Source: an uncultured delta proteobacterium
GTDB lineage: Bacteria; Myxococcota; Myxococcia; SLRQ01
NCBI GenBank assembly: GCA_963727485.1
Contig: CAVSGM010000001.1
Location: 274,006-338,005 of the forward strand
DNA length: 64,000 nt
Direction: 5' to 3'
Part shown: one piece after another, positions 8,576 through 28,004 of the stretch
How the letters are laid out: each line of letters starts with the position of its first letter
Position numbering within the stretch: position 1 is the first letter of the stretch
Notes under the pieces: generated by a model
Databases searched by the model: none
What the model saw: only the letters and a program-made list of their open reading frames with translations
What the model was told of the DNA's origin: nothing
Position numbers and translations under genes: made by a program

Positions 8576-8577
8576 CC

Positions 8578-10916: not shown

Positions 10917-10918
10917 TC

Positions 10919-11857
<939 letters not shown>

Positions 11858-11862
11858 CGATC

Positions 11863-12696
11863 ATGGCGCGCAAGTCCAACAAGCGGCGGACGGATCCCAC
11901 GGTGGCCCGCGACAAGGTGCGCGGGGCGGCGCGGAGCGCGTTCGGCTTCGTGGCCCGGCTCCTCGGGGCGGCGGTGGTGGTCGCCGGCACCTTCGCCGCG
12001 GTCATCGCCACCTACCTGTGGATGACCACCTCCTCGCGTTTCGCGGTGCGCGAGGTGGACATCGCCGGCAACCACCACGCCACCCTCGCCGAGCTGGCGC
12101 CCCTGACCGGCCTGGCCCAGGGCACCAACCTGTTCCTGGTCAACGCCGACGAGGTCGCCGCCCGCCTCGAGTCCCACCCCTGGGTGCGCACCGCGGTGGT
12201 GCGCCGGGTCTTCCCCTCCACGGTGCAGGTCACGGTGGACGAGCACCACGCGGTGGCCCTGGTGGCCCTCGGGGGCCTCTACCTCGCCGACGCCGAGGGG
12301 CAGGTGTTCAAGCGCGCCGTCCCCGGCGACCCCATGGGGCTCCCGGTGATCACCGGCCTGAAGCGGGGCGAGGGCGAGGCCGGACGGGCCGCCCTCGAGG
12401 CCGGGGTGCGCCAGGCGCTCACGGTGGCCCGCGACTGGCGCCACTCGCCCATGGCCAAGGTGGCCCGGCTCTCGGAGATCCACCTCGATCCCCTCGCCGG
12501 CGTGAGCCTCACCGCCGCCGGCGACGCGGGGGACGGCAAGCCGATGGTGGTGCACCTCGGCCACCACGATCTCGTGCGGCGGCTTCTGCGACTGCACCAG
12601 CTCTGGACCACCCTGTCGGCGCGCGGGCAGCGCCCCCAGGAGGTCTTTCTCGACAACCACACGCGACCACAGTGGGTGGTGGCGCGGGTGGACTGA
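11863..12696 (+). CDS. ftsQ: Cell division protein FtsQ
   Basis: 277 aa from ATG 11863. Basic N-terminus, single TM (AAVVVAGTFAAVIATYLW), POTRA-like domain. Position between ddl and ftsA. Confidence 0.85.
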   Translation: MARKSNKRRTDPTVARDKVRGAARSAFGFVARLLGAAVVVAGTFAAVIATYLWMTTSSRFAVREVDIAGNHHATLAELAPLTGLAQGTNLFLVNADEVAARLESHPWVRTAVVRRVFPSTVQVTVDEHHAVALVALGGLYLADAEGQVFKRAVPGDPMGLPVITGLKRGEGEAGRAALEAGVRQALTVARDWRHSPMAKVARLSEIHLDPLAGVSLTAAGDAGDGKPMVVHLGHHDLVRRLLRLHQLWTTLSARGQRPQEVFLDNHTRPQWVVARVD

Positions 12697-12781
12697 ACGC
12701 GGCATCCACGAAGGACCGGACACGGGTGAGAGCCCGGGCGACAGGGGAGACCCGAGCCAACGTCACGGTCGAGGAGGGACA

Positions 12782-14013
12782 ATGGCAAAGCGAGGCGAGC
12801 TGATCGTCGGACTCGACATCGGGACCACCAAGATCTGCGCGATCGTCGGTGAGGTCACCGAGACCGGGTCCATCGACATCATCGGAATCGGCACCCACCC
12901 GTCCAAGGGGCTGCGCAAGGGCGTGGTGATCAACATCGAGTCCACGGTGGACTCCATCAAGAAGGCCATCGAGGAGGCCGAGCTCATGGCCGGCTGCGAG
13001 ATCAGCACGGTCTACGCCGGCATCGCCGGGGGGCACATCAAGGGGATTCAACAGCCACGGCGTCGTGGCGGTGAAGGACAAGGAGGTCACCAAGACCGAC
13101 GTGGACCGGGTGATCGACGCGGCCAAGGCCATCGCCATCCCCATGGACCGCGAGGTGATCCACATCCTCCCCCAGGAGTTCATCGTCGACGACCAGGACG
13201 GGATCCGCGAGCCCCTCGGGATGAGCGGGGTCCGCCTCGAGGCCCAGGTGCACATCGTCACCGGCGCGGTCACGTAGCGCCCAGAACATCATCAAGTGCG
13301 CCAACCGCTGCGGCCTCAACGTCGCCGACATCGTCCTGGAGCAGCTGGCCAGCTCCGAGGCGGTGCTCACCGACGACGAGAAGGAGCTGGGGGTGGCCCT
13401 GGTGGACATCGGCGGCGGCACCACCGACATCGCCATCTTCTCCGAGGGGGCCATCGTCCACACCAGCGTCCTGGCGGTGGGCGGCAACCACCTCACCAAC
13501 GACATCGCGGTGGGGCTGCGCACGCCCACCCACGAGGCGGAGAAGATCAAGCAGAAGTACGGCTGCGCCATGAGCGCCATGGTCGACCGCGAGGAGACCA
13601 TCGAGGTCCCCAGCGTCGGCGGCCGGCCGCCCCGGGTGCTCTCCCGGCAGATCCTCTGCGAGATCATCGAGCCCCGGGTGGAAGAGATGTTCATGCTGGT
13701 GCAGCGCGAGCTCCAGAAGTCGGGCTACGAGGACCTGCTGGCCAGCGGGGTGGTCATCACCGGCGGCTCCACGCTGCTGGAGGGGATGCCCGAGCTCGCC
13801 GAGGACGTGCTGGGCCTGCCGGTGCGGCGCGGGCTGCCCCGGGGAATCGGCGGGCTGGTCGATGTGGTCAGGAGCCCGATGTACGCCACCGGCGTGGGCC
13901 TGGTGCTCTACGGCAGCCAGAACACCGACGCCAAGCACTTCCGGGTGCGCGACGAGAACGTCTACGGGAAGGTCCGGGGCCGGATGAAGTCGTGGCTGGC
14001 GGATCTCTTCTAG
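12782..14013 (+). CDS. ftsA: Cell division protein FtsA; frame broken by two apparent +1 single-base insertions (about 13046 and 13275)
   Basis: Three consecutive pieces in frames 2, 0 and 1 together form a complete FtsA. Piece 1: MAKRGELIVGLDIGTTKICAIVGE...IAGGHIKG. Piece 2: FNSHGVVAVKDKEVT...VHIVTGAVT. Piece 3: SAQNIIKCANRCGLNV...VDIGGGTTDIAIFSEG... to KSWLADLF. Removing a from gggAttcaac and t from acgTagcgcc restores a contiguous ~409-aa actin-like ATPase. Confidence 0.88.
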
Positions 14014-14097
14014 GAACCAAGGCAGTGGACTCCACCCCGAGAGGGGCGAAGCGGACGCGAGAGCGGATGACGCGACGGAGAACGTGAGGAGGCAGAC

Positions 14098-15387
<1,290 letters not shown>

Positions 15388-15402
15388 CCTCGGGACGCGC
15401 GT

Positions 15403-15424
15403 CTTCCCGCCGGCGTCTGCCTCC
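15403..15424 (+). terminator. GC-rich stem-loop immediately downstream of ftsZ (GCCGGCG-N8-CGCCGGC); possible intrinsic terminator
   Basis: 7-bp perfect inverted repeat 16 nt after the ftsZ stop. No U-tract, which is common in high-GC genomes. Confidence 0.3.
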
Positions 15425-15485
15425 GCCGGCCGGGGAGGCGTGCGTCGCCTTGACCCCCCTCCGCCCGAGAGACTAGGAAGCCCCG

Positions 15486-16217
15486 ATGCCCACCCGCGAC
15501 CTCAACTGGCGAATCCACGAGAAGAGCGCCGACCAGACCCGGATCCTCGACGGGATCCTGGCCCGGCTGGAGGACGCCGGCGACACCCCGGTGGCCACCT
15601 TCGACCTCGACTCCACCCTCTTCGACAACCGCACCCGGCAGCTCGCCATCCTCACCGAGTTCGCCGAGCGCGCGGGCCTCGAGGGGGTGGGGCGCCTGAC
15701 GCCCGAGGAGATCGACGGGTGGCTGGTGGCCGACGCCATCGCGCGCCTCGACGGGGTCGACGGCCGCCTCGACGCCCTGAAGGCCGAGTTCAAGGCCTTC
15801 TGGCGCACCCGCTTCTTCACCAGCGAGATGTGCCGCCACGACGTGCCGCTCCCCGGCGCCGCCGACTTCGTGAACGACGTCGCCGGGGTGGGCACCCAGG
15901 TCATCTACCTCACCGGTCGCCACGAGCCCATGCGCGCCGGCAGCGCCGAGAGCCTGAAGGCCGGCGGCTTCCCCGAGGGGCGCCTGATCATGAAGCCCAC
16001 CCTGGAGATGACCGACACCGCGTTCAAGGAGCTGGCGGTCGGCGAGATCCGCCCCCTGGGCCCGGTGCTCGCCTGCTTCGACAACGAGACCACGCATGTG
16101 AACCGCCTCCGGGCGGCCTTCCCCGACGCCACGGTGGTCTGGATCCAGACCGACCACTCCCCGGAGGCGGAGCCGGTGGCCGACGGCGTGCCGGCGATCC
16201 ACGGGTTCCTGCGCTAG
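15486..16217 (+). CDS. HAD-superfamily hydrolase (phosphatase-like)
   Basis: 243 aa. HAD motif I FDLDSTLFDN (DxDxT), later conserved K and DD-type motifs. SD-like AGGAAG 8 nt upstream of the ATG. Confidence 0.75.
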   Translation: MPTRDLNWRIHEKSADQTRILDGILARLEDAGDTPVATFDLDSTLFDNRTRQLAILTEFAERAGLEGVGRLTPEEIDGWLVADAIARLDGVDGRLDALKAEFKAFWRTRFFTSEMCRHDVPLPGAADFVNDVAGVGTQVIYLTGRHEPMRAGSAESLKAGGFPEGRLIMKPTLEMTDTAFKELAVGEIRPLGPVLACFDNETTHVNRLRAAFPDATVVWIQTDHSPEAEPVADGVPAIHGFLR

Positions 16218-16248
16218 GCCGGGGCCCGCGCGTCCTCGAGGCGCCGCT

Positions 16249-16734
16249 TCATCGCCCTCGCGCGCGCCGGTGCTGCGGGAACTCGAAGTGGACGAGGGGG
16301 TGCCGGATCACCAGGCGCCCGGCCTCCCGCGTCCGGGCCGGGCGGGTGTCGCAGATTGTCGCGCCCAGGAGGCGATCCAGGCGCCGGTGACCCAAGGGCG
16401 TCAGCGCCAGGGCCAGGGTGCCGGCGACGGTGAGGGCGCCGACGGTCGCGAGGATCCCCCGGACGACTGGCCAGGCCCGCCGGCGCCGGGGCACCGGCGC
16501 GACCGCCTGCACCCCGTCGAGGAAGGCGAAGGGATCCTCGTCGGGACCGAGGCGCGGGCGGTGGCGGGCCGCGCGGCCGGCGGTGAGGGCGGCGCCAAGG
16601 GCGAGGGTGGCGAGGCCGAGGTCCCAGGGGGCGGGGAGCCAGGGGAAGCCGGCGACCCGGCCCACGAGGAGGCCGGCGGTGGCGAAGCTGGCGACGGCGG
16701 AGAGCTGCAGGGGCAGGCGGGGATCGCGGGTCAT
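16249..16734 (-). CDS. Hypothetical membrane protein (2-3 TM), probably co-transcribed downstream of the 16749..17387 gene
   Basis: 161-aa ORF from ATG 16734, found by hand inside the longer track ORF 16249..16980. Almost exclusively G/C at third codon positions, two hydrophobic helices. It lies 14 nt after the upstream gene's stop, and the opposite-strand ORF is G/E-rich junk. Confidence 0.45.
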   Translation of the reverse strand: MTRDPRLPLQLSAVASFATAGLLVGRVAGFPWLPAPWDLGLATLALGAALTAGRAARHRPRLGPDEDPFAFLDGVQAVAPVPRRRRAWPVVRGILATVGALTVAGTLALALTPLGHRRLDRLLGATICDTRPARTREAGRLVIRHPLVHFEFPQHRRARGR

Positions 16735-16748
16735 GGTGGCCTCTCGGG

Positions 16749-17387
16749 TCACAGGCAGGCCTCGGCGGTGTCGCTGCAGGAAGGGAAGCTGCTGCCGAAC
16801 ATTGCCCGGACGTTGTCGCCGAACGCCGAGATCAGGAAGGCGATCAGGGCCAGGATCGCCACCCCCTTCAGCACTCGGCCGGCCAGCCAGTGGGCGCCCC
16901 AGCGGCCCTGGCCCAGCGACCATCCCCGTCGCCCCAGGTACATCCCGGCACCGCCGGCAGCGGCCGCGATGGCGACCCACGGGGAGAGGACGGCGGCGGC
17001 GAGGTCCATGGCGTCATGCCAGGTGGCGGCAAAGGCCGCGCCGCCGACGAGGCCGTAGAGGGCCAGGCCGCCTACGGCGCCGGCGATGAGGGCCCAGAGG
17101 AGGAACGCGCCCCGGGCGCCGGCGAGGTGGCGGCGGGCGGCGCAGCGCAGCCGCCAGGCCCCCAGGCGCCGGGCACGGAAGAGGCCGTCGGTGAGGCGCC
17201 GGCGCCACCTGCGGCTCCGGGTCCAGGCGAGGTAGCCACCGGCGCCGGCGAGGGCGACGCCGAGGCCGACGCTGAGCACCTCGCCCGAGCCGTGCCCGCC
17301 CAACACGACGTCGGGCTTCAGGGCGACGCCGGCGACCACCCCGGCGATCAGGGAGGCGACGGGCATCTTGAGTGAACCGACGGTCAT
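16749..17387 (-). CDS. Small polytopic membrane protein of unknown function, family member P1 (C-terminal motif FGSSFPSCSDTAEAC)
   Basis: About 213 aa from ATG 17387 (alternative ATG at 17366). 4-5 TM helices, Arg-rich cytoplasmic loop LFRARRLGAWRLRCAARRHL. A clear paralog of the C-terminal half of ORF 17601..19043. Confidence 0.6.
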   Translation of the reverse strand: MTVGSLKMPVASLIAGVVAGVALKPDVVLGGHGSGEVLSVGLGVALAGAGGYLAWTRSRRWRRRLTDGLFRARRLGAWRLRCAARRHLAGARGAFLLWALIAGAVGGLALYGLVGGAAFAATWHDAMDLAAAVLSPWVAIAAAAGGAGMYLGRRGWSLGQGRWGAHWLAGRVLKGVAILALIAFLISAFGDNVRAMFGSSFPSCSDTAEACL

Positions 17388-17518
17388 CGGGAGGTGCCTC
17401 CCACGGCGAGGGCCGGGACCGGGCGACCGGGCTCGGGCGCGGTCAGAAGGACCGTCGGGCGAGGGGTGCGGGTGGCGTTCGACATGACCCGAGCATGACG
17501 CGCCCGGCCGCCCTCGAA

Positions 17519-17546
17519 AATCGGCCAGACGTCCGTCGGACGAACG
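17519..17546. promoter_or_regulatory. Conserved motif site A: AATCGGCCAGACGTCCGTCGGACGAACG containing the perfect palindrome CGTCCG-T-CGGACG
   Basis: Located in the 213-bp intergenic region upstream (coding-strand sense) of the 16749..17387 gene. Near-identical copy at 21192..21219 and a diverged copy at 21965..21992, each upstream of a minus-strand gene of the same family. Confidence 0.5.
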
Positions 17547-17600
17547 TTCGTCGGTCGGTTGACGTACCCGCTCCCGCACCGACCGCCACGGGGCCCGCCG

Positions 17601-19043
17601 TCACTGCGTGCCGCCGTGGAGGCGGGCGAAGGTCTCGAGGTTGAGGTGGCCGTCGAGGCGCTGGGACCGCGAGCGCGCGGCGTCCTGCTCCGCCTCGTAC
17701 ATCGCCTGACCCAGCTGGCAGCTCGGATGGGCGCCGAAGAGCTCGCGCAGGCGTGGACCGATCACCATCGCGGTCGCCTGGGTCGCCAGGGCGAGCACGG
17801 TCACCGCGCCGACCGCCGCGAGGCAACCGCGGACCAGGGGCCAGACCCGGCGCGGCCGCGCGGCCCGCCGGAGTCGGCGCCGCTCGCGGGCGCAGCGGTG
17901 GTTCCAGGCGGCAAGGCGTCGGGCGCGGTAGAGCGCGTCGAGGCCCCGGCGGCGCAGGCGCCGTGTCCCGGCCCAGAGGGCGGCGGCCGCCACCCCCGCC
18001 AGGAGCGCCGCCAGGTACGCCGGCGCCAGGGCGAAGCCCGCGACCATCCCCACGACCAGGGCGGCGCCGGCGCGCTTCGCCGCCGGGGCCCGGGCGTCGG
18101 TGGCCTGGAGGGGGACGGGCGGGGTGCGCTGGGGGGCAGCTCTCATGGTGGCGCTCCGGCAGGGGTGGGGGCGACGAGCTTCAGGGTCCCCGGCCGGGCC
18201 CGGGACCGGGGCGGGGTGGGCGGCGGGTCGGTGTCGAGGCGCAGGCACCGGGCGCCGTCGGTGCAGGGGCGATTCGAGCTCGGCCCCGCCGGCGTTCGAG
18301 GCCAGAGGTGAGCACGCGAGGTGCGCCCCGGGCTCCATCCCCCCGTGGCTCAGTTCGAGCTTGCAGAGCCGGGGGTGATGGCCCAGCCCGGCGACGAGCC
18401 CGGTCTGGGCGTCGAATCGCCAGAGGTCGGCCTGGGCGTCGGCGTCGTTGGTGTAGGGCGAAAGGTCGACGCGCCCGTGGGGGCGGTAGGCGACCGTCTC
18501 GGAGACCAGGAGCCGGGTGGCGACGCCCTTGGCCCGAAAGGGGCCCACGGTGACCCGGACCTCGTGCCTCGGGGCGCGGTACCCGACCACCTGGCACCGC
18601 TCGTCGAGGCGCACCGGGTGGCCGGGGAAGGCGGCGCGGACCCGGGCGAGGGCGTCGTGGTCCCAGTGCCAGGCGAGGAGGCCGAAGGGTCCGCAGGGCA
18701 GGCGCACGGGCCCGCTGTCGGTGCCGTGGTCGATGTGGCGCCAGGTGCGGTAGCTCGCGTCCGCGCTCCCGGCCACCAGGAGCCCGAAGCACACGGCGAC
18801 GAAGGTCAGGGTGCGACGGCCGCGCCGCCCGGCCCGGTGGCCCCGCCAGGTCCAGGCCAGCACGCCGCCGGCCACCAGCTCCAGGATCGCCAGCGTCGTG
18901 CCGTAGGCGCCGTCGAGGTGACGGTAGGCGGCCCAGGGGAGGACCAGGAGCACCGCCGCGGAGACGAGGGCGATGGCCCCGCCCAGGACGAAGGCGAAGG
19001 TCCCGAGGGAGTTCGGGGGATCGGTGCGGGGTGCGGTTTCCAT
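17601..19043 (-). CDS. Membrane protein of unknown function. N-terminal half (P3) has 3 TM plus one copy of the ARVRAAFPG repeat module. C-terminal half (P2) is a paralog of the 16749..17387 protein. Possibly two genes fused by a lost stop.
   Basis: Continuous ORF. The N-terminal part (METAPRT...) has 3 TM then ...ALARVRAAFPGHPVRLDERC... The C-terminal about 190 aa share LYRARRLAAWNHRCARERRRL and FGAHPSCQLGQA with P1. ATG 19043 chosen (GGAG 8 nt upstream). The longer track ORF start at 19097 would overlap the upstream gene. Confidence 0.5.
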   Translation of the reverse strand: METAPRTDPPNSLGTFAFVLGGAIALVSAAVLLVLPWAAYRHLDGAYGTTLAILELVAGGVLAWTWRGHRAGRRGRRTLTFVAVCFGLLVAGSADASYRTWRHIDHGTDSGPVRLPCGPFGLLAWHWDHDALARVRAAFPGHPVRLDERCQVVGYRAPRHEVRVTVGPFRAKGVATRLLVSETVAYRPHGRVDLSPYTNDADAQADLWRFDAQTGLVAGLGHHPRLCKLELSHGGMEPGAHLACSPLASNAGGAELESPLHRRRPVPAPRHRPAAHPAPVPGPAGDPEARRPHPCRSATMRAAPQRTPPVPLQATDARAPAAKRAGAALVVGMVAGFALAPAYLAALLAGVAAAALWAGTRRLRRRGLDALYRARRLAAWNHRCARERRRLRRAARPRRVWPLVRGCLAAVGAVTVLALATQATAMVIGPRLRELFGAHPSCQLGQAMYEAEQDAARSRSQRLDGHLNLETFARLHGGTQ

Positions 19044-19071
19044 GGGGTCTCCGGTGGACGGCGCGGTGGGT

Positions 19072-21156
19072 TCAGCCTCCCGAGGCCGGGGTGGCACCCG
19101 GGAGGCCCGGGACGCGGAGCTTGGCGCAGGGCTTGGGCACCTCGGGCATCTTGTCGCCGCTCGCCTCGACGACCGCCGCGTCGATGGGACAGCGGTTCTT
19201 CACCATCACGTCCGGGCGCATCAGGGTCACCCCGGCCTCCGCCACCCGCCGGGGCTCGCAGTACACCGCGGCGAAGGCCGGGGCGTTGGCGATGCCGGCG
19301 CTGTTGAGCACGCAGAGGCGCGGACCCTTCGCCGGCCGGGGACGGAAGCGGTGGCTCCGGTCGACCCGGCGCGCCAGGGCCCGGGCCGCCGCGAGGGTCG
19401 AGAGCGGCGAGAGGGAGACCCGGGGTGCCGAGAGGCTGCCCTCTACCACCACGTCCACGGTGAGGACGAGGTCGGTGCGCCCGTGGTGGAAGCGGCCGAC
19501 CTCGGCCCAGAGCCGTCGGGTGGTGCCCTGGGCCCGGCAGCCTTCGGTGAGGGCCACCATCTTGCCGGGGAAGGCGGCCCGCACCCGCGCCAGGGCCAGG
19601 CGGCGCCAGGCGTCGGTGTCGGGGCCGCAGCGGGAGTCCAGGGAGCCGAGGGGGCCGGGGTCGTCCCGGGCGGAGGCAGAGCGGGGCGGGGGCGCCGGGT
19701 GCCGGGGCACCTCGGGGACGCCCCGGCCGGAGATGGTGACGCAGTTCCACCCGCCGATGCGGCACGCCCGGCCGGCGTCGAGGGTCTGCTGGTGGAAGAC
19801 GTCGAGGTCGACGTCCTTCCACAGGAGCAGCGCGGTGCCCACCTGCCCCGCCTCGGCGGGGACACACCGGGCGGTCCAGCTCCCGATCCCGTCGGGGGTG
19901 CCGGGTCGCGACGGGTCGTCGCCGGGCTCCACCACGCACAGGTGCGCGGCGCCGCTCCGGGCGTCGAGGGCCCGGAGCACCTGGCGGGCGGCGCCGAGGT
20001 CGGCGAAGGGCCGGATGTGGACCTGGGTCTCGCGCCCGTGGCCGGTGACCGAGACGTGGAGATCGAGGATGAAGCTCGAGCCCACGCCCCGGGCGGTGAC
20101 CCGGCCGGCGCGGATCCAGAAGATGCCCGCCGGTGGGTGGTCGATGGCGTCGTCCTGGTCGGGCACGGTGCGGCGTACCGTCAGGCCGGGAAAGGCGGCG
20201 CGGGTCCGGGCGAGGGCGAGGCGTGCGGCCTTGGGCCCCTGGCGAAGCGCGGGCTTCGGAGGCGGGATCGCGGCCGGCGCGGAGGGGCGGGTGAACTCGG
20301 AGAGGCTCCGGTGGTGCACGAGCGGCATGGTGAGGCAGGGCGAGCCGACGGTGAAGCCGCAGTCGCCCACGTCGAGGGCGTGGCCGAAGAGGAACCCGGT
20401 GCCGGCGTCGGAGGTCAGGTTGCAGCCGATCTCCTCCGTGCCCGCGTCGGTGAGGCAGTCCACGTGCCTGTCCCCGAAGGCGAGGCGGACCCGGTCGCTC
20501 CGGGCGAGCCGGCGCAGGGCCTTCCGGGCCGCGGCGAGGTCGGCGTAGGGCGCCAGCGGCCGCGGCGTCCCCTCATCGTCGACCGGGGCGCTGGCCTGGA
20601 CGTAGAGGCGGACGTGGAGCCCGGGGACCACCACCGGGCCGACCTTGTAGCCGAGGTCCCAGTGGTCGTCGTCGTAGAGGGGACGGTCGTCGGTCTCCAT
20701 CTGCAGGCCCGGGAAGGCGGCCCGGATCCGGGCCCGCACCGCCGGGAGCGCCTCGCAGGGCTCGGTGTCGCCGTCGCAGGACGGACCGGCGAAGGTCTTC
20801 AGGCGGCGGTGCTCGTCCACGCCGGGCGCCAGCTTCACGGGGAGGCGCGGGGAGCCATCGTCGCTCGGCCAGTCCCCGTGGAACCAGGTGGCCCCGTCCA
20901 CGAGGAGGAACCCGCCGACCGTCAGGCCCAGGGCCAGCGCGGTCCAGCCCAGCCCCCGGAGCACCGACCACCAGGGGCTGAAGGGGTTGGGGGCGACGAG
21001 GAAGGCGGCCAGGAAGGTGAGTGCGCCAATCGCCAGGGTCCAGATCCCGGCGAGCACCGGCCAACCCAGGGCGCTCCCGGCGAGCCAGCCGACGAGGACG
21101 CTCGCCCCGAGCACGCGGAGGAGAAAGGCGAGGCGTCGGCGGAGGGGGGTGTTCAT
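19072..21156 (-). CDS. Large membrane-anchored protein of unknown function (P4): 3 N-terminal TM helices plus three tandem ~90-aa repeat modules (A-x-A-R-x-R-A-A-F-P-G ... A-D-L-x-A-A-R-x-x-L-R-x-L)
   Basis: 695 aa from ATG 21156 (MNTPLRRRLAFLL...). Internal repeats beginning AVRARIRAAFPGL, ALARTRAAFPGL and ALARVRAAFPGK. Cys motif FAGPSCDGDTEPCEAL resembles the C-termini of P1/P2. The opposite-strand 852-aa ORF is G/E/R-rich junk. Confidence 0.6.
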   Translation of the reverse strand: MNTPLRRRLAFLLRVLGASVLVGWLAGSALGWPVLAGIWTLAIGALTFLAAFLVAPNPFSPWWSVLRGLGWTALALGLTVGGFLLVDGATWFHGDWPSDDGSPRLPVKLAPGVDEHRRLKTFAGPSCDGDTEPCEALPAVRARIRAAFPGLQMETDDRPLYDDDHWDLGYKVGPVVVPGLHVRLYVQASAPVDDEGTPRPLAPYADLAAARKALRRLARSDRVRLAFGDRHVDCLTDAGTEEIGCNLTSDAGTGFLFGHALDVGDCGFTVGSPCLTMPLVHHRSLSEFTRPSAPAAIPPPKPALRQGPKAARLALARTRAAFPGLTVRRTVPDQDDAIDHPPAGIFWIRAGRVTARGVGSSFILDLHVSVTGHGRETQVHIRPFADLGAARQVLRALDARSGAAHLCVVEPGDDPSRPGTPDGIGSWTARCVPAEAGQVGTALLLWKDVDLDVFHQQTLDAGRACRIGGWNCVTISGRGVPEVPRHPAPPPRSASARDDPGPLGSLDSRCGPDTDAWRRLALARVRAAFPGKMVALTEGCRAQGTTRRLWAEVGRFHHGRTDLVLTVDVVVEGSLSAPRVSLSPLSTLAAARALARRVDRSHRFRPRPAKGPRLCVLNSAGIANAPAFAAVYCEPRRVAEAGVTLMRPDVMVKNRCPIDAAVVEASGDKMPEVPKPCAKLRVPGLPGATPASGG

Positions 21157-21191
21157 GGTCCCCAAGCTTCCGGCGTCGGTCGCCACGCGAC

Positions 21192-21219
21192 AATCGGCCG
21201 ACCGTCCGTCGGACGAATG
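21192..21219. promoter_or_regulatory. Conserved motif site B: AATCGGCCGACCGTCCGTCGGACGAATG (palindrome CGTCCG-T-CGGACG), 36-63 nt upstream of the P4 start codon
   Basis: 25/28 identical to site A. Followed by a partial third repeat, GACAATCGTCCG. Confidence 0.5.
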
Positions 21220-21527
21220 ACCGTTGGACAATCGTCCGATGCGTCGTCGTGCCATCTGGCAGTCCGTCAAAGTGCCATACGGCAGACTGGCGTCAGCGCG
21301 GGCCCACCCCGTTCAGGGGGGCGCAGCCGAGCCACCACCCGGGCACCACGGGGACCCGGCTCACCCGGAGCCGCACCACCCGGTCGCCGCCGCCAGCGCC
21401 ACAACGAGCCCCAGGTCCACGACCAGGATCCACTGGTGCACCCGGAGGCCCACGACCACAGCCCCGCGGAGAGGAGGGCCAGGAGCGCCGTGGTGGCGGC
21501 CAGGAGGGCGGTGCGCACCGGGCCTGC

Positions 21528-21932
21528 CTAGGGTCCGTCGCGCCCGGCGCGGAAGTAGCGCTCGATGGCCGAGGGCTTGTCGGCGCCGGGGCCGGTGTAG
21601 CGCTGGAGCTTCGGGCCCGCCGGCGCCGGCCTGGCCGCGGGCGCGTCGGGGTCATAGGCCTTGAGCGTCCGGTGGTCCGGTTTCGAGGCCGGCGGGGGCG
21701 CGCCGACCGGTGCCGGCCGGGACGGCTCCACCCCCGAGAAATCCGCGGTGCGGGCGCCGAAGAGCCGGCGGATCTGGGGGGCGAAGAGCACCATCCCGGC
21801 CCACAGCACCAGGACCAGGATGCCGACGGCGGCGAGGGCCTCGCGCCAGAGGCGGCGGCGGCGCGGGGCGGGCGTGGGGGGCGCCGGGGTCGCGGCGGGA
21901 TCGGGCGGGGGGATAGCGGGGCCGGGGGACAT
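21528..21932 (-). CDS. Small Pro-rich single-TM protein of unknown function (P5)
   Basis: 134 aa. Pro/Ala-rich N-terminus, one TM (ALAAVGILVLVLWAGMVLFA), then QIRRLFGARTADF resembling the R-x-(L/M)-F-G motif that precedes the Cys motif in P1/P2. Preceded by motif site C. Confidence 0.45.
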   Translation of the reverse strand: MSPGPAIPPPDPAATPAPPTPAPRRRRLWREALAAVGILVLVLWAGMVLFAPQIRRLFGARTADFSGVEPSRPAPVGAPPPASKPDHRTLKAYDPDAPAARPAPAGPKLQRYTGPGADKPSAIERYFRAGRDGP

Positions 21933-21964
21933 GGCCCGACCCTGCCGGATCCGGAAATCCCCGG

Positions 21965-21992
21965 CAATCGGTCACCCGACCGTCGGGCGATC
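21965..21992. promoter_or_regulatory. Diverged motif site C: CAATCGGTCACCCGACCGTCGGGCGATC upstream of the 21528..21932 gene
   Basis: Shares AATCGG(C/T)C and the CG(A/T)CCGTCGG(A/G)CGA core with sites A and B. Confidence 0.35.
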
Positions 21993-22045
21993 GACCAATC
22001 CCGGGAGACCGCCCGCCGCTCTCGCCACCCGCCCCCGGCCGGGGA

Positions 22046-23419
22046 TCAGGCGGGCTCGGCCGCCGGGGCCGCAGGCGCATCCCCACCGGAGGCGCCGTGG
22101 GGCTTGTCGTTCCACAGGCGGGTCATGATGAACGCGCCGATGAGCGAGAAGGGCACGATGGCCCAGGTCCACACGTGCCACCCGAAGTGGTCGAGGAGGA
22201 CGCCCATGAGGATGCTGGTGAAGCCACTGGCCACGTACTGGATTCCGTCGAGCATCCCCGCGGCGCTGGCGGCGCCCTTCTTGCCGCCGAAGTCCATGGA
22301 GGCGGTGCCCGAGAGCATCCCGTGGACCCCGAAGATCCAGGTGCAGGCGAAGCCGATGCCCAGGGCGGCGAGGAGGTCGCTGTGGACCAGGCCGAGGGCG
22401 ACGATGGCCACCACCTGCATCAGGTAGAAGAAGAACGCCACCGGCGGCCGCCGCGACTGGAAGAACCGGTCGGAGAGCCAGCCGGCCAGGAGCCCGCCGA
22501 CGATGCCGCCGACGGTGATGCTCGCGGTGGCGTAGTTGAACAGGGTGCTCCCGGGGGTGATGTGGTGCACCGTGGACAGCCACTCGGGGAAGAAGAAGAG
22601 GATCGACTGGCGGACGAAGCCGGTGCAGAACTCGGCGGCCATCAGGGTCAGCAGCACCGGGTTGGTGAACACCTTCCGGACGATGTACTTGAAGTCGACC
22701 GGGGTCTCGTCGCCGTCGGAGGCGTCGGCGGTGGAGAAGTCGTCGTAGCCCGCGTCCGAGGGCTTGTCCCGGACGAAGAGGAACGAGAGCACGAACATCA
22801 CCATCATGGCGATGCTGGGGAAGAAGAAGGTGAAGTACCAGGGGAAGATGTCCGGGTGCTTCATGATCCACCCGGCGGTGGACAGGGCCATCACGTAGCC
22901 CAGCGAGATCATGATCCCGAAGATCCCTCCGAACACCCCGCGCTCGTTCACGTGGAACCAGGGGGCGTTGACCTTCACCACGCTCATCGCCCCGAAGCTC
23001 TGGAAGAACATGTTGGCCGCGTAGAGCAGGCCCATGAGCAGCACCAGGTGGCTGGTGAAGCCGCCGAAGAAGAGCAGGCCGATGGCGAGGTTGAAGGTCG
23101 CCGCGCCCACCGCGCCGAGGAGGATCGCCTTGCGCCCGCCGATCTTGTCGGCGATGGGGCCGTTGACCAGCTCCGAGAGGGCGTACATCCAGAAGCCCGC
23201 GGCGGCGATCCAGCCGAACTGGGCCTGGCTGCCCCCGAGGAAGGTGGTCTCGATGTGGTGCTTGACGACGTTGACGTTGTAGCGACCCATGTAGAAGGTC
23301 GCGTAGGTCAGCCCCAGGAGGAACCAGTTCACGAACCGCCGGATCCGGTAGGCGGAGGAGTGGTTGGGAAAGCCGCGGGCGGGTGCGGCGGTCTCGAGGC
23401 TCGGGCTGATGTCGGTCAT
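22046..23419 (-). CDS. MFS transporter, organophosphate:phosphate antiporter family (GlpT/UhpT-like)
   Basis: 457 aa, 12 predicted TM helices. N-terminal YRIRRFVNWFLLGLTYATFYMGRYNVNV, typical of the GlpT/UhpT (OPA) family. Two 6-TM halves separated by an acidic loop. Confidence 0.8.
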   Translation of the reverse strand: MTDISPSLETAAPARGFPNHSSAYRIRRFVNWFLLGLTYATFYMGRYNVNVVKHHIETTFLGGSQAQFGWIAAAGFWMYALSELVNGPIADKIGGRKAILLGAVGAATFNLAIGLLFFGGFTSHLVLLMGLLYAANMFFQSFGAMSVVKVNAPWFHVNERGVFGGIFGIMISLGYVMALSTAGWIMKHPDIFPWYFTFFFPSIAMMVMFVLSFLFVRDKPSDAGYDDFSTADASDGDETPVDFKYIVRKVFTNPVLLTLMAAEFCTGFVRQSILFFFPEWLSTVHHITPGSTLFNYATASITVGGIVGGLLAGWLSDRFFQSRRPPVAFFFYLMQVVAIVALGLVHSDLLAALGIGFACTWIFGVHGMLSGTASMDFGGKKGAASAAGMLDGIQYVASGFTSILMGVLLDHFGWHVWTWAIVPFSLIGAFIMTRLWNDKPHGASGGDAPAAPAAEPA

Positions 23420-23591
23420 CGTCCGCCGTCATACCGGACCGGTCCCGTGCGGCGCAACCGAGCCGCCGGGCCAATCGGGCCCTGCGCCGACCCCGGCGAA
23501 GCGGGTACAATCCCCCCGGCCGGCAGGTCGCCGGGCCAAAGCCATCGCCCGCCCCACCGGGCCGCCGCACCCACGCCGAAAGGGGGAAGTC

Positions 23592-24029
23592 ATGCGCCAG
23601 CGCCTGATCCCGGTCCTCTTGACCCTGGCCCTCGCCGCCGCCGCGGCCCCACGCCCGGCCCGGGCCGCGACCCGCATCGGCCTCGGCGCCGACTACCACC
23701 TCGCCGGCCAGGGGATCTTCCAGCTCACCCTCGACGTGGACACACCGCTGGCCCGGCACCTCTCGGTGGGCGGGCGCTTCGGGGCGATGCTGTCGAGCAC
23801 GCCCACCACCTTCGGGGTTCCGCTGGATCTCTACCTGCGCCTGCGGATCCGGCGCATCTACGTCCAGGGCCTGGTGGGGCCGTGGATCTTCTTCGGGGGC
23901 CCCTCGGTGCGCGTCCACGCCGCCTTCGGCTTCGGCCTCGAGGCGGGGGGCGGGCTCTCGGTGGGCCTGGAGGTCGGCTGGCTCGACCCCTCGGCGATCA
24001 TCGGCCTGCGGCTGGCCTGGCGGATCTAG
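23592..24029 (+). CDS. Small secreted beta-rich protein, possible outer-membrane beta-barrel
   Basis: 145 aa from ATG 23592 (strong SD AGGGGGAAG). Signal peptide MRQRLIPVLLTLALAAAAAPRPARA. Alternating hydrophobic pattern, C-terminal aromatic-rich strand ...GLRLAWRI. Confidence 0.6.
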   Translation: MRQRLIPVLLTLALAAAAAPRPARAATRIGLGADYHLAGQGIFQLTLDVDTPLARHLSVGGRFGAMLSSTPTTFGVPLDLYLRLRIRRIYVQGLVGPWIFFGGPSVRVHAAFGFGLEAGGGLSVGLEVGWLDPSAIIGLRLAWRI

Positions 24030-24044: not shown

Positions 24045-24452
24045 TCAGAGGGCGGCGAGGGCGGCGCGAATCGCCTCGGGGACCGGCACCGCCTTCATGG
24101 TGCGGTAGTCGACGATCACCACCGTCCCCTCGGCGACGGCCAGCGGCGTGTCCTCGTCCTCGGCCCGGGCCACCGCGTACTCGGTGACCACGCTCGACCG
24201 GCCGAGCTTCGCCACCCGCACCCCCACCACCAGGTCCGCCGGGTACACCACCGGCCGGCGGTAGGTGCAGGAGGTGGAGGCGAGGACCGGGCCCACGGGG
24301 TCGCCGGGGCGGGCGGCGAGCGCCAGGCGCTCGAAGAGCGCGATGCGCGCCGACTCGAACCAGGTGAAGTACCGGGCGTTGTTGGCGTGGCCCAGGGCGT
24401 CCATCTCGCCCCAGTGCATGGGAAACCGGATGGTGATCGGGTAGCCGTCCAT
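24045..24452 (-). CDS. Acyl-CoA thioesterase, hotdog fold (4HBT/YbgC-like)
   Basis: 135 aa. The MHWGEMDALGHANNARYFTWFE motif is characteristic of the 4HBT thioesterase superfamily. Confidence 0.75.
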   Translation of the reverse strand: MDGYPITIRFPMHWGEMDALGHANNARYFTWFESARIALFERLALAARPGDPVGPVLASTSCTYRRPVVYPADLVVGVRVAKLGRSSVVTEYAVARAEDEDTPLAVAEGTVVIVDYRTMKAVPVPEAIRAALAAL

Positions 24453-24553
24453 GGCGCCCGAGGGTATCGCCGGGACCCTTCGGGCGCCACGGTAGGGGCC
24501 CCCGCGGCGCCCGCGGACCCCGGCGGTGCTATCGTTCCCCCCTGGAGCCCGCC

Positions 24554-26323
24554 ATGACCCGACGCCTGTCCCTCCTCGTCCCCCTCGTCGTCCTCCTCGC
24601 CGCCTGCGGATCGCCCACGGGGCACGGGGGCGCTGACGGCGGCGCGGGCGACGGCGGCGGCGCGGCGGTCACCCTGAAGCTCGCCCCCGCCGACGCGACC
24701 CTCTCCACCGTCGACGGCCAGGTGCCGTCCCAGGCCTACACCCTCACCGCCGTCCACCCCGACGGCACCACCGAGGACGTCACCGCGGACGCGGCCTTCG
24801 GCCTCGCCGACGGGAGCCTCGGCTCGTTCGTGAAGGCGACCCTCACCGCCACCGGCACCGCCGCCGGGACCACCTCCGTGGAGGCCACGTGGCAGGGTCA
24901 CCAGGCCACCGCCACGGTCCACTTCGCGGTGGTCCGCCACGACCTCGGCTCCGGGGTCGACCCCTCAATCCCCGGCGCCATCTCTGGCGCCACCGCCGAC
25001 CCCGCCGACGCCCCGACGGTGGTCTACCCCTCGCCGAAGACCCTCTTCCCCACCAACCTCTCGGCCTTCGAGGTCCACTGGACGGGCCCGGCGGCGGTGA
25101 AGGACTACGCGGTGAACCTCAAGGGCCCCGGCGTCGACCTCACCCGCTACGTCACCGCCGACCCCAGCGGGAAGAACTACGCGAGCTTCGACGCCGGCAC
25201 CTGGGCCCTCGTCGGCACCGCCGCCGCCGGGGCCACCGTCACCGTCACCGTCACCGGTCTCGATCCCGTCGCCGGCACCACCGGCGAGGACCACCTGGAC
25301 GTCGCCGTGGCCCGGACCCGCCTCGACGGCGGCGTCTACTACTGGGCGGCGAAGAGCGCCGACGGGAGCCCCGAGGGCATCTGGCGCCACGACCAGGACC
25401 AGCCCGGGTCCGCGGCCGCGCCCTACTTCACCACCAACGACCTCGGGGGCACCGGCCACACCTGCGTCGCCTGCCACGTCCTCTCCCCCGACGGCACCAA
25501 GATGGCGGTCACCTTCGACGGGGGCAACGGCCCCAGCACCCTGGTCGACGTGGCGACCAAGACCGCGATCATCGACGCCACCAACCACTTCCACTGGAAC
25601 TTCGCCGCCTTCACCCCCGACGGCGCCAAGCTCCTCGGGTCGTTCAACGGTGCGCTCACCCTCTACGACGCCAGCAACGGCGGCACCCTGGGGACGGTGA
25701 CCACACCGGGCTACGGGACCCAGCCCCAGTTCTCCCCGAACGGCGACGCGGTGGTCTACGTCTCCCCCACCTCGCCCACCTCCGACTGGAAGTTCACCGG
25801 CGGGCGGATCGTCCTCCAGCCCTACGACGCCGCCGCCGGCACCTTCGGCACCGCGAAGATCATCCACCAGCACGCCGGGTTCAACGACTACTACCCGGCG
25901 TTCTCCCCGGACGGGACCTGGCTGCTCTTCGACGAGTCCACCGAGGACGCCTACGACGACGCCTCGGCGCAGCTCTACGCCCTCCCCGCCGACGGCAGCG
26001 GCCCCGCCATCCGCCTCGACCAGGCCAACGTGAAGGGCGGGCTCACCAACTCCTGGCCGAGGTGGGCACCCTTCGCGGCGACCGCCACCGGGCCCGACGG
26101 CAGGGCCGAGCGCTTCTACTGGTTCACCTTCTCGTCCAAGCGGGCCTTCGGGGTGCGCATGGCCGCGGGCCGGCCCCAGATCTGGGTGGCGCCGTTCTTC
26201 CCCGACCGGGCCGCCGCGGGCCAGCCGCCGACCCTGCCGGCCTTCCGCCTCCCGGACCAGAGCCTCCAGTCGAACAACCACATCGCCCAGTGGACCCAGC
26301 GGGTGGTGCTCCCGATCCACTAG
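24554..26323 (+). CDS. Lipoprotein with Ig-like N-terminal region and TolB-like beta-propeller repeats; contains a CxxCH heme-binding-type motif
   Basis: 589 aa. Lipobox LLAAC|G. Repeated FSPDG/FSPNG propeller blade signatures. TCVACHVLSPDG (nt about 25462-25476) is a CxxCH motif. Confidence 0.7.
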   Translation: MTRRLSLLVPLVVLLAACGSPTGHGGADGGAGDGGGAAVTLKLAPADATLSTVDGQVPSQAYTLTAVHPDGTTEDVTADAAFGLADGSLGSFVKATLTATGTAAGTTSVEATWQGHQATATVHFAVVRHDLGSGVDPSIPGAISGATADPADAPTVVYPSPKTLFPTNLSAFEVHWTGPAAVKDYAVNLKGPGVDLTRYVTADPSGKNYASFDAGTWALVGTAAAGATVTVTVTGLDPVAGTTGEDHLDVAVARTRLDGGVYYWAAKSADGSPEGIWRHDQDQPGSAAAPYFTTNDLGGTGHTCVACHVLSPDGTKMAVTFDGGNGPSTLVDVATKTAIIDATNHFHWNFAAFTPDGAKLLGSFNGALTLYDASNGGTLGTVTTPGYGTQPQFSPNGDAVVYVSPTSPTSDWKFTGGRIVLQPYDAAAGTFGTAKIIHQHAGFNDYYPAFSPDGTWLLFDESTEDAYDDASAQLYALPADGSGPAIRLDQANVKGGLTNSWPRWAPFAATATGPDGRAERFYWFTFSSKRAFGVRMAAGRPQIWVAPFFPDRAAAGQPPTLPAFRLPDQSLQSNNHIAQWTQRVVLPIH

Positions 26324-26352
26324 CGTGCCGGGCGTGTGCCCGGCGGGTGCCT

Positions 26353-26799
26353 TCAGTCGCCGACGTCGTCGACGGCGAGGCGGTGGGCGCGGTCGGGGGT
26401 GAGGTCGCCGTCGGCGAGGAGCTCGGGGAGCCGGGCGAGGATGCGCCGGGGGAGCACCCGCTCGATCTTGGAGATGACCCGGGTGATGGCCTCGTCCCAG
26501 GTGTCCTCGCCCTCGCGCTGGAAGCACAGCCGCGCCATGTAGAGGGCCGCGACCTCCTCCACCGAGAACGCCGGCCCCAGGCGAAGGCTCCGCGGCTCGA
26601 GGAGGCGCCAGCAGACCTGCCGCCCCTCCCGGTCCTGGACCAGGGGGATGCCGACCCGCTCGAGGATCTCCAGGTCCCGGTACACGGTGCGCACCGAGAC
26701 GGTGAGCTCCCGGGCGAGGTCCCTCGCCGGGGCCCCGCCGCTCCGGCCCGCGAGGGCCTGGAGGAGCTGCCACTGTCTTGCAATCTGATCGCCGCGCAT
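26353..26799 (-). CDS. HTH-type transcriptional regulator (DeoR/YafY-like N-terminal HTH, no obvious ligand domain)
   Basis: About 148 aa from ATG 26799. RGDQIARQWQLLQALAGRSGGAPARDLARELTVSVRTVYRDLEILERVGIPL is a typical HTH_11/DeoR-type helix-turn-helix. The upstream intergenic region has inverted repeats. Confidence 0.55.
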   Translation of the reverse strand: MRGDQIARQWQLLQALAGRSGGAPARDLARELTVSVRTVYRDLEILERVGIPLVQDREGRQVCWRLLEPRSLRLGPAFSVEEVAALYMARLCFQREGEDTWDEAITRVISKIERVLPRRILARLPELLADGDLTPDRAHRLAVDDVGD

Positions 26800-26942
26800 C
26801 GGTGTTCGAGCCCGTAGATGTCCCGAGAGAGTCTGCATGAGACCCGTGTCAGATCGGGACAAATCGGGGAGTTGCGCGATCGGTGTCCGCAGGCGAACAC
26901 GAAGGACGTTCGCCAGCGAACACAAAACCGGTTCGTCTGCGG

Positions 26943-28004
26943 GAGATCAGGGGGGGCGGGCTTCGGGGCGCGCGGCGTGGGGGCGGCTCCGGCGGTCCCG
27001 GTGATCGCCGCGCCGTGGGGGCGCTCGTCGAGGGTCAGGGGCGTGACCGCGTAGCGCTGGCCGTCGGTGCGCACCCGCACCGGCCCCCCGACCACCGTCA
27101 CCGCCTCCGGGAGGTGCAGGGGCGGGCAGCCGCGGCCCGGGCGGGGCCGGCCGGTGAGGAGCACCCGGGCGCCGCTGCGCACCAGCCGCTCGAGGACCGC
27201 CTCGCCGGGCCCGCAGCGCCCGGGGCCGGTGGAGACGATGGCCACCGCCGGGGACACCGCCCGGAGAAACGCCGCGGAGGTCGAGGTGTCGGCGCCCCCG
27301 GCGGAGACCCGGAGGACGTCGACGTGGCCCACCGCCGACCCCAGGGGGGTCTCCACGTCCGCGGTCCCCTCGCCGCCCCCGGGGAGCGCGCCGGCGGTGA
27401 GGTAGCGGAAGGCGCCGTCGGTGAGGAGCAGCGCCAGCGACCGCCCGGCGGCGTCGTGGACCTTCACCCGGGCGCCGCCTACCACCGCACCGTTCACCGC
27501 CATCACCCGGGCGACCACGCCGTCCCCGAGGTCGATGCGGTCGCCGGGGCGGGCGGTGGTGTGGTGGCCGGCGGCGAGGGTGCCGTAGCCCAGGCACTCG
27601 AGGCTGGTGCAGGTGAAGTCACGGCCGTAGTCGAGGAGGACGCCCCTTGGGACCGTGTCGTCGGCGGTCCCCGGCTGGCCGTCGCGACCGGCGAGGAGCA
27701 TCACCAGCCCGCCCACGGTGGAGGTGGCGAGGTGGCTGACCACCACGTGGTCCGGGGGCAGGGCGTGGTGGCGGCGCAGGGTGGTGAAGAGGACCGCGGT
27801 CGAGGGGCCCGGGGGGCCGCCGTCGATGAGGAGGCTGTCCCCGCGCGGGGCGTCGACCAGGGTGGCCTCGCCGGCGCCCACGTCGAGGACGGTGATCTCC
27901 AGGACCTGCTTGCCGGCGAGGGCCGGGGCGGTGGGGACCGGGGCGGCGGTGCGGCAGCCGGAGGCGGCGAGGACCAGGACGACGGCGGCGGCGCGGAGGC
28001 GCAT
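26943..28004 (-). CDS. Lipoprotein with metallo-beta-lactamase fold (ComEC C-terminal-domain-like); 3' end uncertain because the ORF reads through a G7 homopolymer with no stop
   Basis: Lipobox VLAASGC. ITVLDVGAGEATLVDAPRGDSLLIDGG is the MBL-fold motif of ComEC/Rec2-type hydrolases. As written, the ORF continues to 26124 through the neighboring regulator gene in another frame. One extra C in the 26951-26957 run would create a TGA, giving a protein ending ...PKPAPP. Confidence 0.55.

Follow-up and report, generated by a model that had tools for sequence, protein, structure and literature searches.

Several described systems resemble parts of the control region analysed here. In two of them, small dimeric repressors bind cooperatively to arrays of short boxes at co-regulated promoters: the met-box arrays of MetJ, consisting of 2–5 tandem 8-bp AGACGTCT boxes, and the heptad arrays of the omega repressor of inc18 plasmids. 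Activator-dependent promoters with a poor -35 element include those with class II CRP/FNR sites near -41.5, PhoB pho boxes, and LysR-type recognition and activation sites. The leaderless-mRNA promoters of high-GC bacteria, known from Actinobacteria and Deinococcus, carry the sequence TANNNT a few bases before the start codon. ECF-sigma promoters are composed of a GGAAC-like -35 and a CGTC-like -10 element 16–17 nt apart, usually with a linked pair of sigma and anti-sigma genes, and sigma-54 promoters of GG-N10-GC (TGGCAC-N5-TTGC) at -24/-12.

In the window, the whole stretch of 64,000 nucleotides that was analysed, three look-alike sites, A (17519-17546), B (21192-21219), and C (21965-21992), are real copies of one conserved control region. 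Re-reading of the sequence returned all three exactly as quoted in the preliminary description, with the perfect 6-1-6 palindrome CGTCCG-T-CGGACG in both A and B and the weakened form CGACCG-T-CGGGCG in the diverged copy C. The 13-mer palindrome alone is not rarer than chance in the window (10 matches with up to 2 mismatches versus 12.6 expected), and a string search of the literature for the 13-mers revealed no occurrences. The composite AATCGGCC-N3-CGTCCGTCGGACGAA with up to 3 mismatches was found in the window only at A and B, with 0 expected, and TCGNCCGACGGNCGNNNGNCCGATT, read on the minus strand with up to 3 mismatches, only at A, B, and C, with 0.14 expected and none of 100 shuffles reaching three matches. 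Rather than recurring at random density, the composite motif is thus highly specific, and no copies outside 17519-21992 were found in the 64-kb window or in about 30 kb of conserved flanks of the homologous loci L018/L019. Two further matches were rejected: the one at 39751-39765 is inside a coding region with its own Shine–Dalgarno sequence and was attributed to chance, and the one at 22603 falls within the MFS gene.

All three sites are located on the coding strand upstream of minus-strand genes, as previously proposed, with an ATG (17485, 21156, and 21932, respectively) 33–35 nt past the last base of the motif, the final T of CCGATT, a word that occurs 10 times on both strands of the 64 kb, three of them at these sites. 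At site A, however, this nearest ATG is not that of P1, which starts 132 nt away from the motif behind a Shine–Dalgarno sequence of its own, GGGAGG, at 17402-17397; it opens a 33-codon ORF, not clearly coding by its GC3, which overlaps the P1 start (17387) as ATGA. Apart from the shared block, the intergenic regions of the three sites cannot be aligned. The features are listed below; array units are given in minus-strand reading, the operator arrays are predicted, and the core promoters were placed by spacing.

16249..17387 (-), site A operon, comprising P1 (16749-17387, 212 aa) and P0 (16249-16734, 161 aa), membrane proteins
17384..17485 (-), ORF of 33 codons, or leader, separating the site A promoter from P1
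17483..17520 (-), putative site A core promoter: -35 slot TTTTCG 17520-17515, 17-nt spacer, -10-like CATGCT 17497-17492, CGGGTC, ATG 17485-17483
17519..17573 (-), predicted site A operator array: distal element GGGTACGTCAA 17569-17559, degenerate unit CCGACCGACGAACGT 17558-17544, proximal unit TCGTCCGACGGACGT 17543-17529, then CTGGCCGATT 17528-17519; orthologous blocks at L019 9277-9390 and L020 4718-4781
17601..21156 (-), site B operon, comprising P4, P3, and P2
17601-18146 (-), P2, 181 aa
18143-19043 (-), P3, with a frameshift in the window caused by an extra A at 18273
19072-21156 (-), P4, 694 aa, three tandem modules
21154..21193 (-), putative site B core promoter: -35 slot TTGTCG 21193-21188, 17-nt spacer, -10-like GAAGCT 21170-21165, TGGGGACC, ATG 21156-21154, the start of P4
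21192..21246 (-), predicted site B operator array: half-unit ..ATCGGACGA 21246-21232, degenerate unit TTGTCCAACGGTCAT 21231-21217, proximal unit TCGTCCGACGGACGG 21216-21202, then TCGGCCGATT 21201-21192
21249..21285 (-), two TGCCA-NN-TGGCA palindromes spaced 23 bp apart, lying distal to site B
21361..21932 (-), site C operon, comprising P5 (21528-21932, 134 aa) and P5b
about 21361-21518 (-), P5b, a small two-helix membrane ORF, frameshifted in the window, without the T that L017 has at 21454
21930..21967 (-), putative site C core promoter: -35 slot TTGCCG 21967-21962, 17-nt spacer, -10-like CAGGGT 21944-21939, CGGGCC, ATG 21932-21930, the start of P5
21966..22005 (-), predicted site C operator array: weak unit CCCGGGATTGGTCGA 22005-21991, proximal unit TCGCCCGACGGTCGG 21990-21976, then GTGACCGATT 21975-21966

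The operons belong to a lineage-specific, fast-evolving island of membrane-protein genes located between an MFS gene and a HAD gene. No Pfam domains were found in the island genes. A word-indexed search with P4 returned only P4 itself, and a full HMMER search among 1.84 billion representative proteins yielded three genuine relatives and one spurious repeat protein. The entry P0013 (JGI) is a 978-bp contig without upstream DNA.

A homologous island is present in two further lineages, one represented by the near-identical copies L018 and L019 and the other by L020, with proteins 30–54% identical to those of the window. In these loci the motif is found in fixed orientation at every same-strand operon head, with 5, 7, and 5 matches in L018, L019, and L020, respectively, versus 0.01–0.09 expected; the copy nearest the promoter always lies on the gene strand and ends 33–37 nt before the called start codons, and the minus-strand matches are overlapping matches to the palindromic units. 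Little aligns between the islands by blastn beyond parts of the P3/P2, P1, and P0 genes; the promoter blocks are among the few short segments that still do, and the intergenic DNA around them is no longer alignable between lineages. Five close MFS relatives (76–84% identity) carry neither the island nor the motif, and in two of the five the MFS gene directly adjoins a HAD-family gene. The source labels of the closest MFS homologues disagree, naming Elusimicrobiota, Deltaproteobacteria, Myxococcales, and Eisenbacteria; weak NCBIfam matches to Myxococcus-type EpsV and Wzx_EPS were also noted. A scan of species-representative genomes with TCGNCCGACGGNCGNNNGNCCGATT gave 16 single matches in unrelated taxa, consistent with chance, and a metagenome scan with TCGYCCGACGRACGNNNNGCNGAT gave 101 single matches, none with island features, located in lower-GC contigs or in recurring conserved segments resembling coding sequence. 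Therefore, the element is known from three lineages only.

Alignment of 10 promoters revealed that the 28-mer of the preliminary description, while indeed a conserved element, is not a single site but part of a larger module, in which 7-bp half-sites are arrayed with a 15-bp period. The array consists of 1–3 contiguous 15-bp units, TCGTCCG-A-CGGACGA, formed by alternating inverted half-sites, and ends with an additional half-site, GGCCGAT(T/G), that is directional and not palindromic. Three promoters in the window and no fewer than 9 in the other loci carry such 7-1-7 palindrome units. In the anchored alignment of the 10 promoters, 14 positions are invariant (T0, C1, C4, C5, G6, A7, C8, G9, G10, C12, C19, G21, A22, and T23), while the spacers around them vary. 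A -10-like hexamer, nAnnnT, lacking the usual first T, is located 20–22 nt past GAT(T/G) in all 10 promoters (0.46 on average in shuffles) and is followed after 6–10 nt by ATG in 9 of them (0.012 on average); these statistics overstate the significance, since the 10 promoters are mutual paralogues and orthologues related by descent and not independent. The stretch between the hexamer and the start codon is G-rich and discriminator-like. The exception is promoter L019 11999, which has no ATG at the expected place; promoter L020 4757 has a 10-nt gap and a possible ribosome site, GGGGA, 5 nt upstream of ATG. In the -35 slot only the first one or two bases are kept (T, then T or G) and the rest vary, as in TTGTCG, TTTTCG, TTGCCG, TGTGGG, and TTCCCC, and a consensus scan of 16000-23600 found no canonical promoter and no recognisable TTGACA-like -35 element. 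The TGCCA-NN-TGGCA pair forms a second conserved element, carried by one promoter per lineage.

Like the MetJ and omega arrays, the module contains a variable number of contiguous 7–8-bp dyad-related half-sites at promoters that appear co-regulated, the number of boxes varies by promoter, and neighbouring half-sites form overlapping palindromes. Unlike them, it has a period of 15 bp (7-1-7, with the next unit following without a gap) and an unrelated sequence, its array is located upstream of the -35 slot and not over the -35/-10 region, and no ribbon-helix-helix or other regulator was found. The weak -35 slot with an abutting factor site is similar to the arrangement at class II CRP/FNR, PhoB, and LysR-type promoters; counted from the presumed start, the last half-site GGCCGAT lies at about -41 to -35 and the others at about -51, -66, and -81, but neither the half-site sequence nor the 15-bp period matches any of these systems. 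The downstream part resembles leaderless promoters in the position of nAnnnT 6–10 nt before ATG and in the G-rich discriminator-like stretch, but conservation of the hexamer does not extend to its first T, and the host is a diderm, with an outer-membrane-type protein and FtsA, rather than a member of a known leaderless-rich group.

The control region is probably a protein-binding array joined to a promoter, and it is likely, judging from sequence comparison, that the sites form the upstream halves of conserved promoter–operator modules, each heading an operon and all co-regulated by one factor. The block combines dyad symmetry, occurrence at several promoters, and position-specific conservation across lineages, as expected of an operator, and the motif sites seen in the 64-kb window and the L018, L019, and L020 loci are confined to the island. 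The earlier proposal of a common operator or specialised promoter is therefore retained as operator plus promoter, given the recurrence at operon heads, but not as an ECF-type element, since the -10-like nAnnnT and the start codon at fixed downstream spacing point to a leaderless promoter of the sigma-70 type. By inspection, most of these ATGs have no Shine–Dalgarno sequence at a working distance, only a run of G 1–3 nt upstream, while the control genes ftsZ, ftsA, and an OMP gene have GGAGG-type sites; a neighbouring 4HBT gene likewise looks leaderless (TACCCT-N8-ATG). On these assignments of the -10 element and of leaderlessness, drawn from spacing and composition, RNA polymerase with a housekeeping-type sigma factor would start at or a few bases from the ATG and produce a leaderless or near-leaderless mRNA. 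The half-site array, at about -35 to -73 and up to -88 from the presumed start, would be the cooperative binding site of a transcription factor, dimeric or oligomeric, that co-regulates all island operons. An activator is slightly favoured over a repressor, a guess from position, because the array sits just upstream of, and abuts, the weak -35 slot. The island genes include none for an HTH or RHH protein, either in the window or in the L018, L019, and L020 loci. The nearest HTH gene (26353-26799; HTH_11, E 1.3e-9), suggested earlier as a candidate regulator, is in the conserved flank with no site near it, and nothing links it to the sites.

One could alternatively read the block itself as the site recognised by an alternative sigma factor, whether ECF or of another group, with TCGTCCGAC or CGGACG as -35, GGCCGAT(T/G) as -10, and a start about 7 nt past GAT, giving a 25-nt leader. 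The fixed orientation and gene distance, the directionality of GGCCGAT(T/G), and the rarity in the genome of AT-containing words such as CCGATT would all agree with this, but the aligned sites have no GGAAC-N16-17-CGTC-like arrangement, and 1–3 repeated palindromic units are operator-like rather than sigma-like. Such a layout would also leave unexplained the separate nAnnnT at fixed spacing with a start codon 6–10 nt later, its 25-nt leader would have no Shine–Dalgarno sequence at a working distance, and in none of the three lineages did a Pfam search reveal a sigma or anti-sigma gene within the island or next to it; we consider it unlikely. A sigma-54 promoter was rejected upon inspection of the aligned sites, since the spacing of GGCCGATTGTCGC is off by one base, site C has no GG, and none of the TGGCAC words at 21249-21285 has a TTGC at the N5 distance. 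A role at the RNA level, whether as a hairpin in the 5'-UTR, as an attenuator, or in terminating the preceding gene, is suggested by GC-rich palindromes downstream of that gene's stop codon, but is extremely improbable: there is no Rfam match and no terminator-like site in 16000-23600, the folding z-scores of -0.7, -1.8, and +0.4 for A, B, and C are not significant, the predicted stems form in a different register at each site, only 1 nt is left for the loop of the core palindrome, and the arm change at site C is uncompensated (C opposite T). Moreover, with a start near the ATG, the element would not be transcribed from its own promoter.

The genomic setting could also suggest that the modules serve as junctions or recombination sites within a cassette-like island, where such repeats between blocks of genes would favour shuffling, duplication, or insertion, the promoter-like position of the modules being secondary. 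Close relatives lack the island, an insert between the MFS and HAD genes; its gene content and number of paralogues vary by lineage while the repeats stay about 80% identical, and all genes but one have the same orientation. Still, no recombinase or integrase was found in or next to the island, the repeats are located at operon heads and not at every gene boundary, and a recombination site has no need of fixed spacing to a -10-like hexamer and start codons, which makes this reading very unlikely. An integron attC-like element was dismissed, with no integrase nearby and no R/L core boxes seen by eye, and no further copies that would suggest a dispersed palindromic repeat of the REP/BIME type were present in the window or the approximately 30 kb of L018/L019 flanks. 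That the similarity is a functionless leftover of gene duplication together with upstream DNA would fit with the downstream genes being paralogues and with L018 and L019 being near-identical copies of one lineage. However, the intergenic regions in the window are unalignable except for the block, and 14 positions are invariant amid randomised spacers between lineages whose proteins are 30–54% identical; such position-specific conservation indicates selection on the block, so that a mere leftover appears highly improbable. A broader possibility, for which the odds appear distinctly low, is that the island is a self-contained, horizontally inserted set of rapidly diversifying envelope-protein cassettes, in which the conserved modules of 60–90 bp serve both as promoters and as homologous cassette junctions, allowing cassettes to be duplicated, swapped, or lost, under a dedicated regulator of an unrecognised type, e.g., an arginine-rich island membrane protein acting as a membrane-tethered DNA binder. 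If this were true, the element would mark a novel type of system for variable surface proteins, carried by an uncultured lineage. As a predicted promoter–operator module, it is an ordinary lineage-specific example, a solid but common kind of regulatory element.

The module provides a testable handle on a block of genes otherwise without annotation. As far as sequence can tell, a single factor appears to switch all of the island's operons jointly by way of a well-defined DNA array, and the promoters would add evidence for leaderless transcription in an uncultured high-GC diderm. The module could serve as bait for the regulator and could reveal the condition under which these variable envelope proteins are made.

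The three motif copies of the preliminary description, lying upstream of minus-strand operons, were all found in the window at the positions it had given, namely site A (17519-17546), site B (21192-21219) and site C (21965-21992). The window has a G+C content of about 74%, and the 13-bp palindrome alone is not rarer than chance there (10 matches with up to two mismatches, versus 12.6 expected). The composite motif TCGNCCGACGGNCGNNNGNCCGATT (minus-strand reading) matches, with up to three mismatches, only at 17519-17543, 21192-21216 and 21966-21990, versus 0.14 matches expected across the 64 kb, and none of 100 shuffles reached three matches. Unlike the bare palindrome, the composite motif is highly specific. 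It includes the rare AT-containing word CCGATT, three of whose 10 occurrences in the window (both strands) fall at sites A-C. No copies were found outside the gene island served by these sites, either in the 64-kb window or in conserved flanks; a dispersed repeat finds no support within these sequences. Scans of species-representative genomes and JGI metagenomes returned chance or coding matches only, and the exact 13-mers did not occur in the searchable literature.

The gene set of the island was established from a GC3 frame plot and from gene calls on L017 (ENA ERZ25039500), a metagenome contig 99.83% identical to the window.

Membrane-protein genes of the window island
21528-21932, minus strand, P5 (site C)
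minus strand, P5b, a 52-codon membrane ORF (site C)
19072-21156, minus strand, P4, 694 aa (site B)
18143-19043, minus strand, P3 (site B)
17601-18146, minus strand, P2 (site B)
16749-17387, minus strand, P1 (site A)
16249-16734, minus strand, P0 (site A)

The encoded proteins carry an N-terminal membrane anchor, and no Pfam domains were found in them. P3 and P4 have in common a module with ...RVRAAFPG..., while P1, P2 and P0 have an arginine-rich loop (...LYRARRLAAW..RC...). P4 is almost an orphan: a word-indexed search matched only P4 itself, and among 1.84 billion representatives a full HMMER search picked out three genuine relatives plus a spurious repeat protein. A short R-x-L-K/E-x-F motif (such as HRTLKTF, RSLKSF, RSLSEFT) appears repeatedly at the C-terminus of proteins from both families of the island (P2, P5, P3 and many proteins of the related islands) and, within P4, at the borders of its three tandem modules (residues ~114-122 and 281-289); it could serve in sorting or processing. 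Between the window and L017 there are 24 substitutions and five single-base indels (18273, 21454, 21774, 26464, 29822), none within the motifs. Because of the indels, P3 and P5b are broken in the window, as are P5 and the HTH gene call in L017; long-read assembly error seems a likelier cause than genuine pseudogenes.

Three further loci were reached through a profile of P3 relatives. Two of them, L018 and L019, come from the same sample and represent a second lineage (88-89% identity to the MFS protein of the window), while L020 represents a third (Logan SRR31012007; 71%). The same kind of cluster is bracketed by an MFS transporter gene and a HAD-family gene in all three lineages.

Extents of the island
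16249-21992, window
8030-16253, L018
4580-12583, L019
772-7691, L020

Flanking DNA is 87-96% identical between lineages versus just 30-54% for island proteins, and the number of genes and paralogues varies. In blastn comparisons, little of the island aligns beyond parts of the P3/P2, P1 and P0 genes; the short segments that do align include the promoter blocks. With up to three mismatches, the motif has five matches in L018, seven in L019 and five in L020, versus 0.01-0.09 expected, and it stands at every same-strand operon head. The promoter-proximal copy is always on the gene strand, ending 33-37 nt before the called start codons; minus-strand matches are overlapping matches to the palindromic units. 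Since five MFS relatives (76-84% identity) have neither island nor motif, and in two of their loci (L128, L125) a convergent HAD-family gene directly follows the MFS gene, the island is an insertion between these two genes, with which the motif travels.

The end of the dcw cell-division cluster adjoins the island in the window (mraY at ~3590-4927, then ftsQ, ftsA and ftsZ up to ~15387), and window 8523-16215 is 96% identical to L019 12985-20687. In L019, FtsW, MurG and Mur-ligase domains are joined in one unusually long call (at least 1085 aa), possibly an artefact of gene calling.

An anchored alignment of 10 non-redundant promoters gave a consensus composed, in order, of ccG.ccgaCGGaCGa, TCGTCCGACGGACG, nnn and GGCCGAT(T/G), with 14 invariant positions and variable spacers. 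The repeat of the array is the 15-bp palindrome TCGTCCG-A-CGGACGA in one to three contiguous copies: two perfect or near-perfect units at L020 4742-4781, and about two and a half each at the site B promoter and at L018 9941. GGCCGAT resembles a further CGGACGA-type half-site (six of seven positions), which accounts for the 26-bp palindrome of site A and the 38-bp-spaced GACAATCG(G/T)CCGA repeat of site B. In each lineage a single promoter (that of P4 in the window) also carries, upstream of the TCGTCCGACGG array, two 12-bp palindromes TGCCA-WW-TGGCA, 23 bp apart centre to centre, probably the site of a putative second regulator.

Positions of the TGCCA-WW-TGGCA pair
21249-21285, minus strand, window
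9873-9909, L018
~6447-6470, L019
708-744, L020

Downstream of GAT(T/G), an nAnnnT hexamer (catgct, gaagct, cagggt, acacct, gaaggt, catcct, tagcgt, cagact, gaggat) follows after 20-22 nt in all 10 promoters, with an ATG 6-10 nt further on in nine of them, versus means of 0.46 and, for hexamer plus ATG, 0.012 in composition-matched shuffles. In the slot lying 17 nt upstream of the hexamer, only the initial T(T/G), which belongs to GAT(T/G), is conserved, and the -35 element is therefore weak. The hexamer-ATG interval usually holds a G-run, too near the ATG for a Shine-Dalgarno role; normally spaced GGAGG-type sites are present at control genes from these organisms (ftsZ, ftsA and the gene of an outer-membrane-type protein). 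We infer a promoter of the sigma-70 type whose mRNA would be leaderless or nearly so. At the start of the neighbouring 4HBT thioesterase gene stands TACCCT-N8-ATG, with no Shine-Dalgarno sequence (L017 8940-8970; L019 2090-2120; window ~24452-24480, minus strand), which suggests leaderless transcripts outside the island as well. At site A, the canonically spaced ATG (17485) begins only a 33-codon ORF (17384-17485, minus strand) whose end overlaps the P1 start as ATGA. P1 has its own ribosome site, GGGAGG; sites B and C have no such intervening ORF, and in L019 the orthologous ATG directly starts a P1-like protein. The ORF could be a translationally coupled leader peptide or a decayed N-terminus.

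An RNA structure was rejected, with no Rfam family, a stem register differing between sites and z-scores of -0.7, -1.8 and +0.4; the change of one palindrome arm at site C, without compensation, also counts against a stem. No terminator was detected in 16000-23600. On inspection, the aligned sites do not show the consensus spacings of sigma-54 or ECF promoters, and no sigma or anti-sigma genes were found near the islands. A relic of duplication is contradicted by position-specific conservation across lineages. The modules may serve secondarily as recombination junctions; no recombinase turned up, however, and their constant distance to the -10 and the ATG speaks for a promoter. The original proposal of a common operator or specialised promoter is supported by the recurrence across lineages and refined by the array units and the -10 and ATG spacing.

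Numbered from the inferred promoter, GGCCGAT would occupy about -41 to -35, the proximal palindrome would be centred at about -51, and further units at about -66 and -81. Such a layout fits a binding array for a putative dimeric or oligomeric transcription factor that would touch RNA polymerase at the weak -35. An activator role is slightly favoured on these grounds, while repression by occlusion or oligomerisation may be the alternative.

No DNA-binding protein encoded in the island was found. A genuine HTH_11 gene (Pfam E 1.3e-9, with agreement of the frame plot) lies at 26353-26799, in the conserved flank of the island; it is also conserved in the L018 flank, with no motif site nearby and no tie to the motif. 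A long minus-strand ORF (26124-28004) is open across it by chance; a GC3 frame switch near 26800-26950 indicates two genes at 26353-28004 instead of the single 550-aa product called on L017. The host is a diderm with FtsA, showing weak similarities to Myxococcus-type EPS proteins; its closest MFS homologues carry source labels that disagree (Elusimicrobiota, Deltaproteobacteria, Myxococcales, Eisenbacteria).

Altogether, the evidence describes a lineage-specific, probable promoter-operator module of a well-known kind. Of mild interest are its association with an island of orphan membrane proteins that is both inserted and hypervariable, and the likely leaderless transcription.
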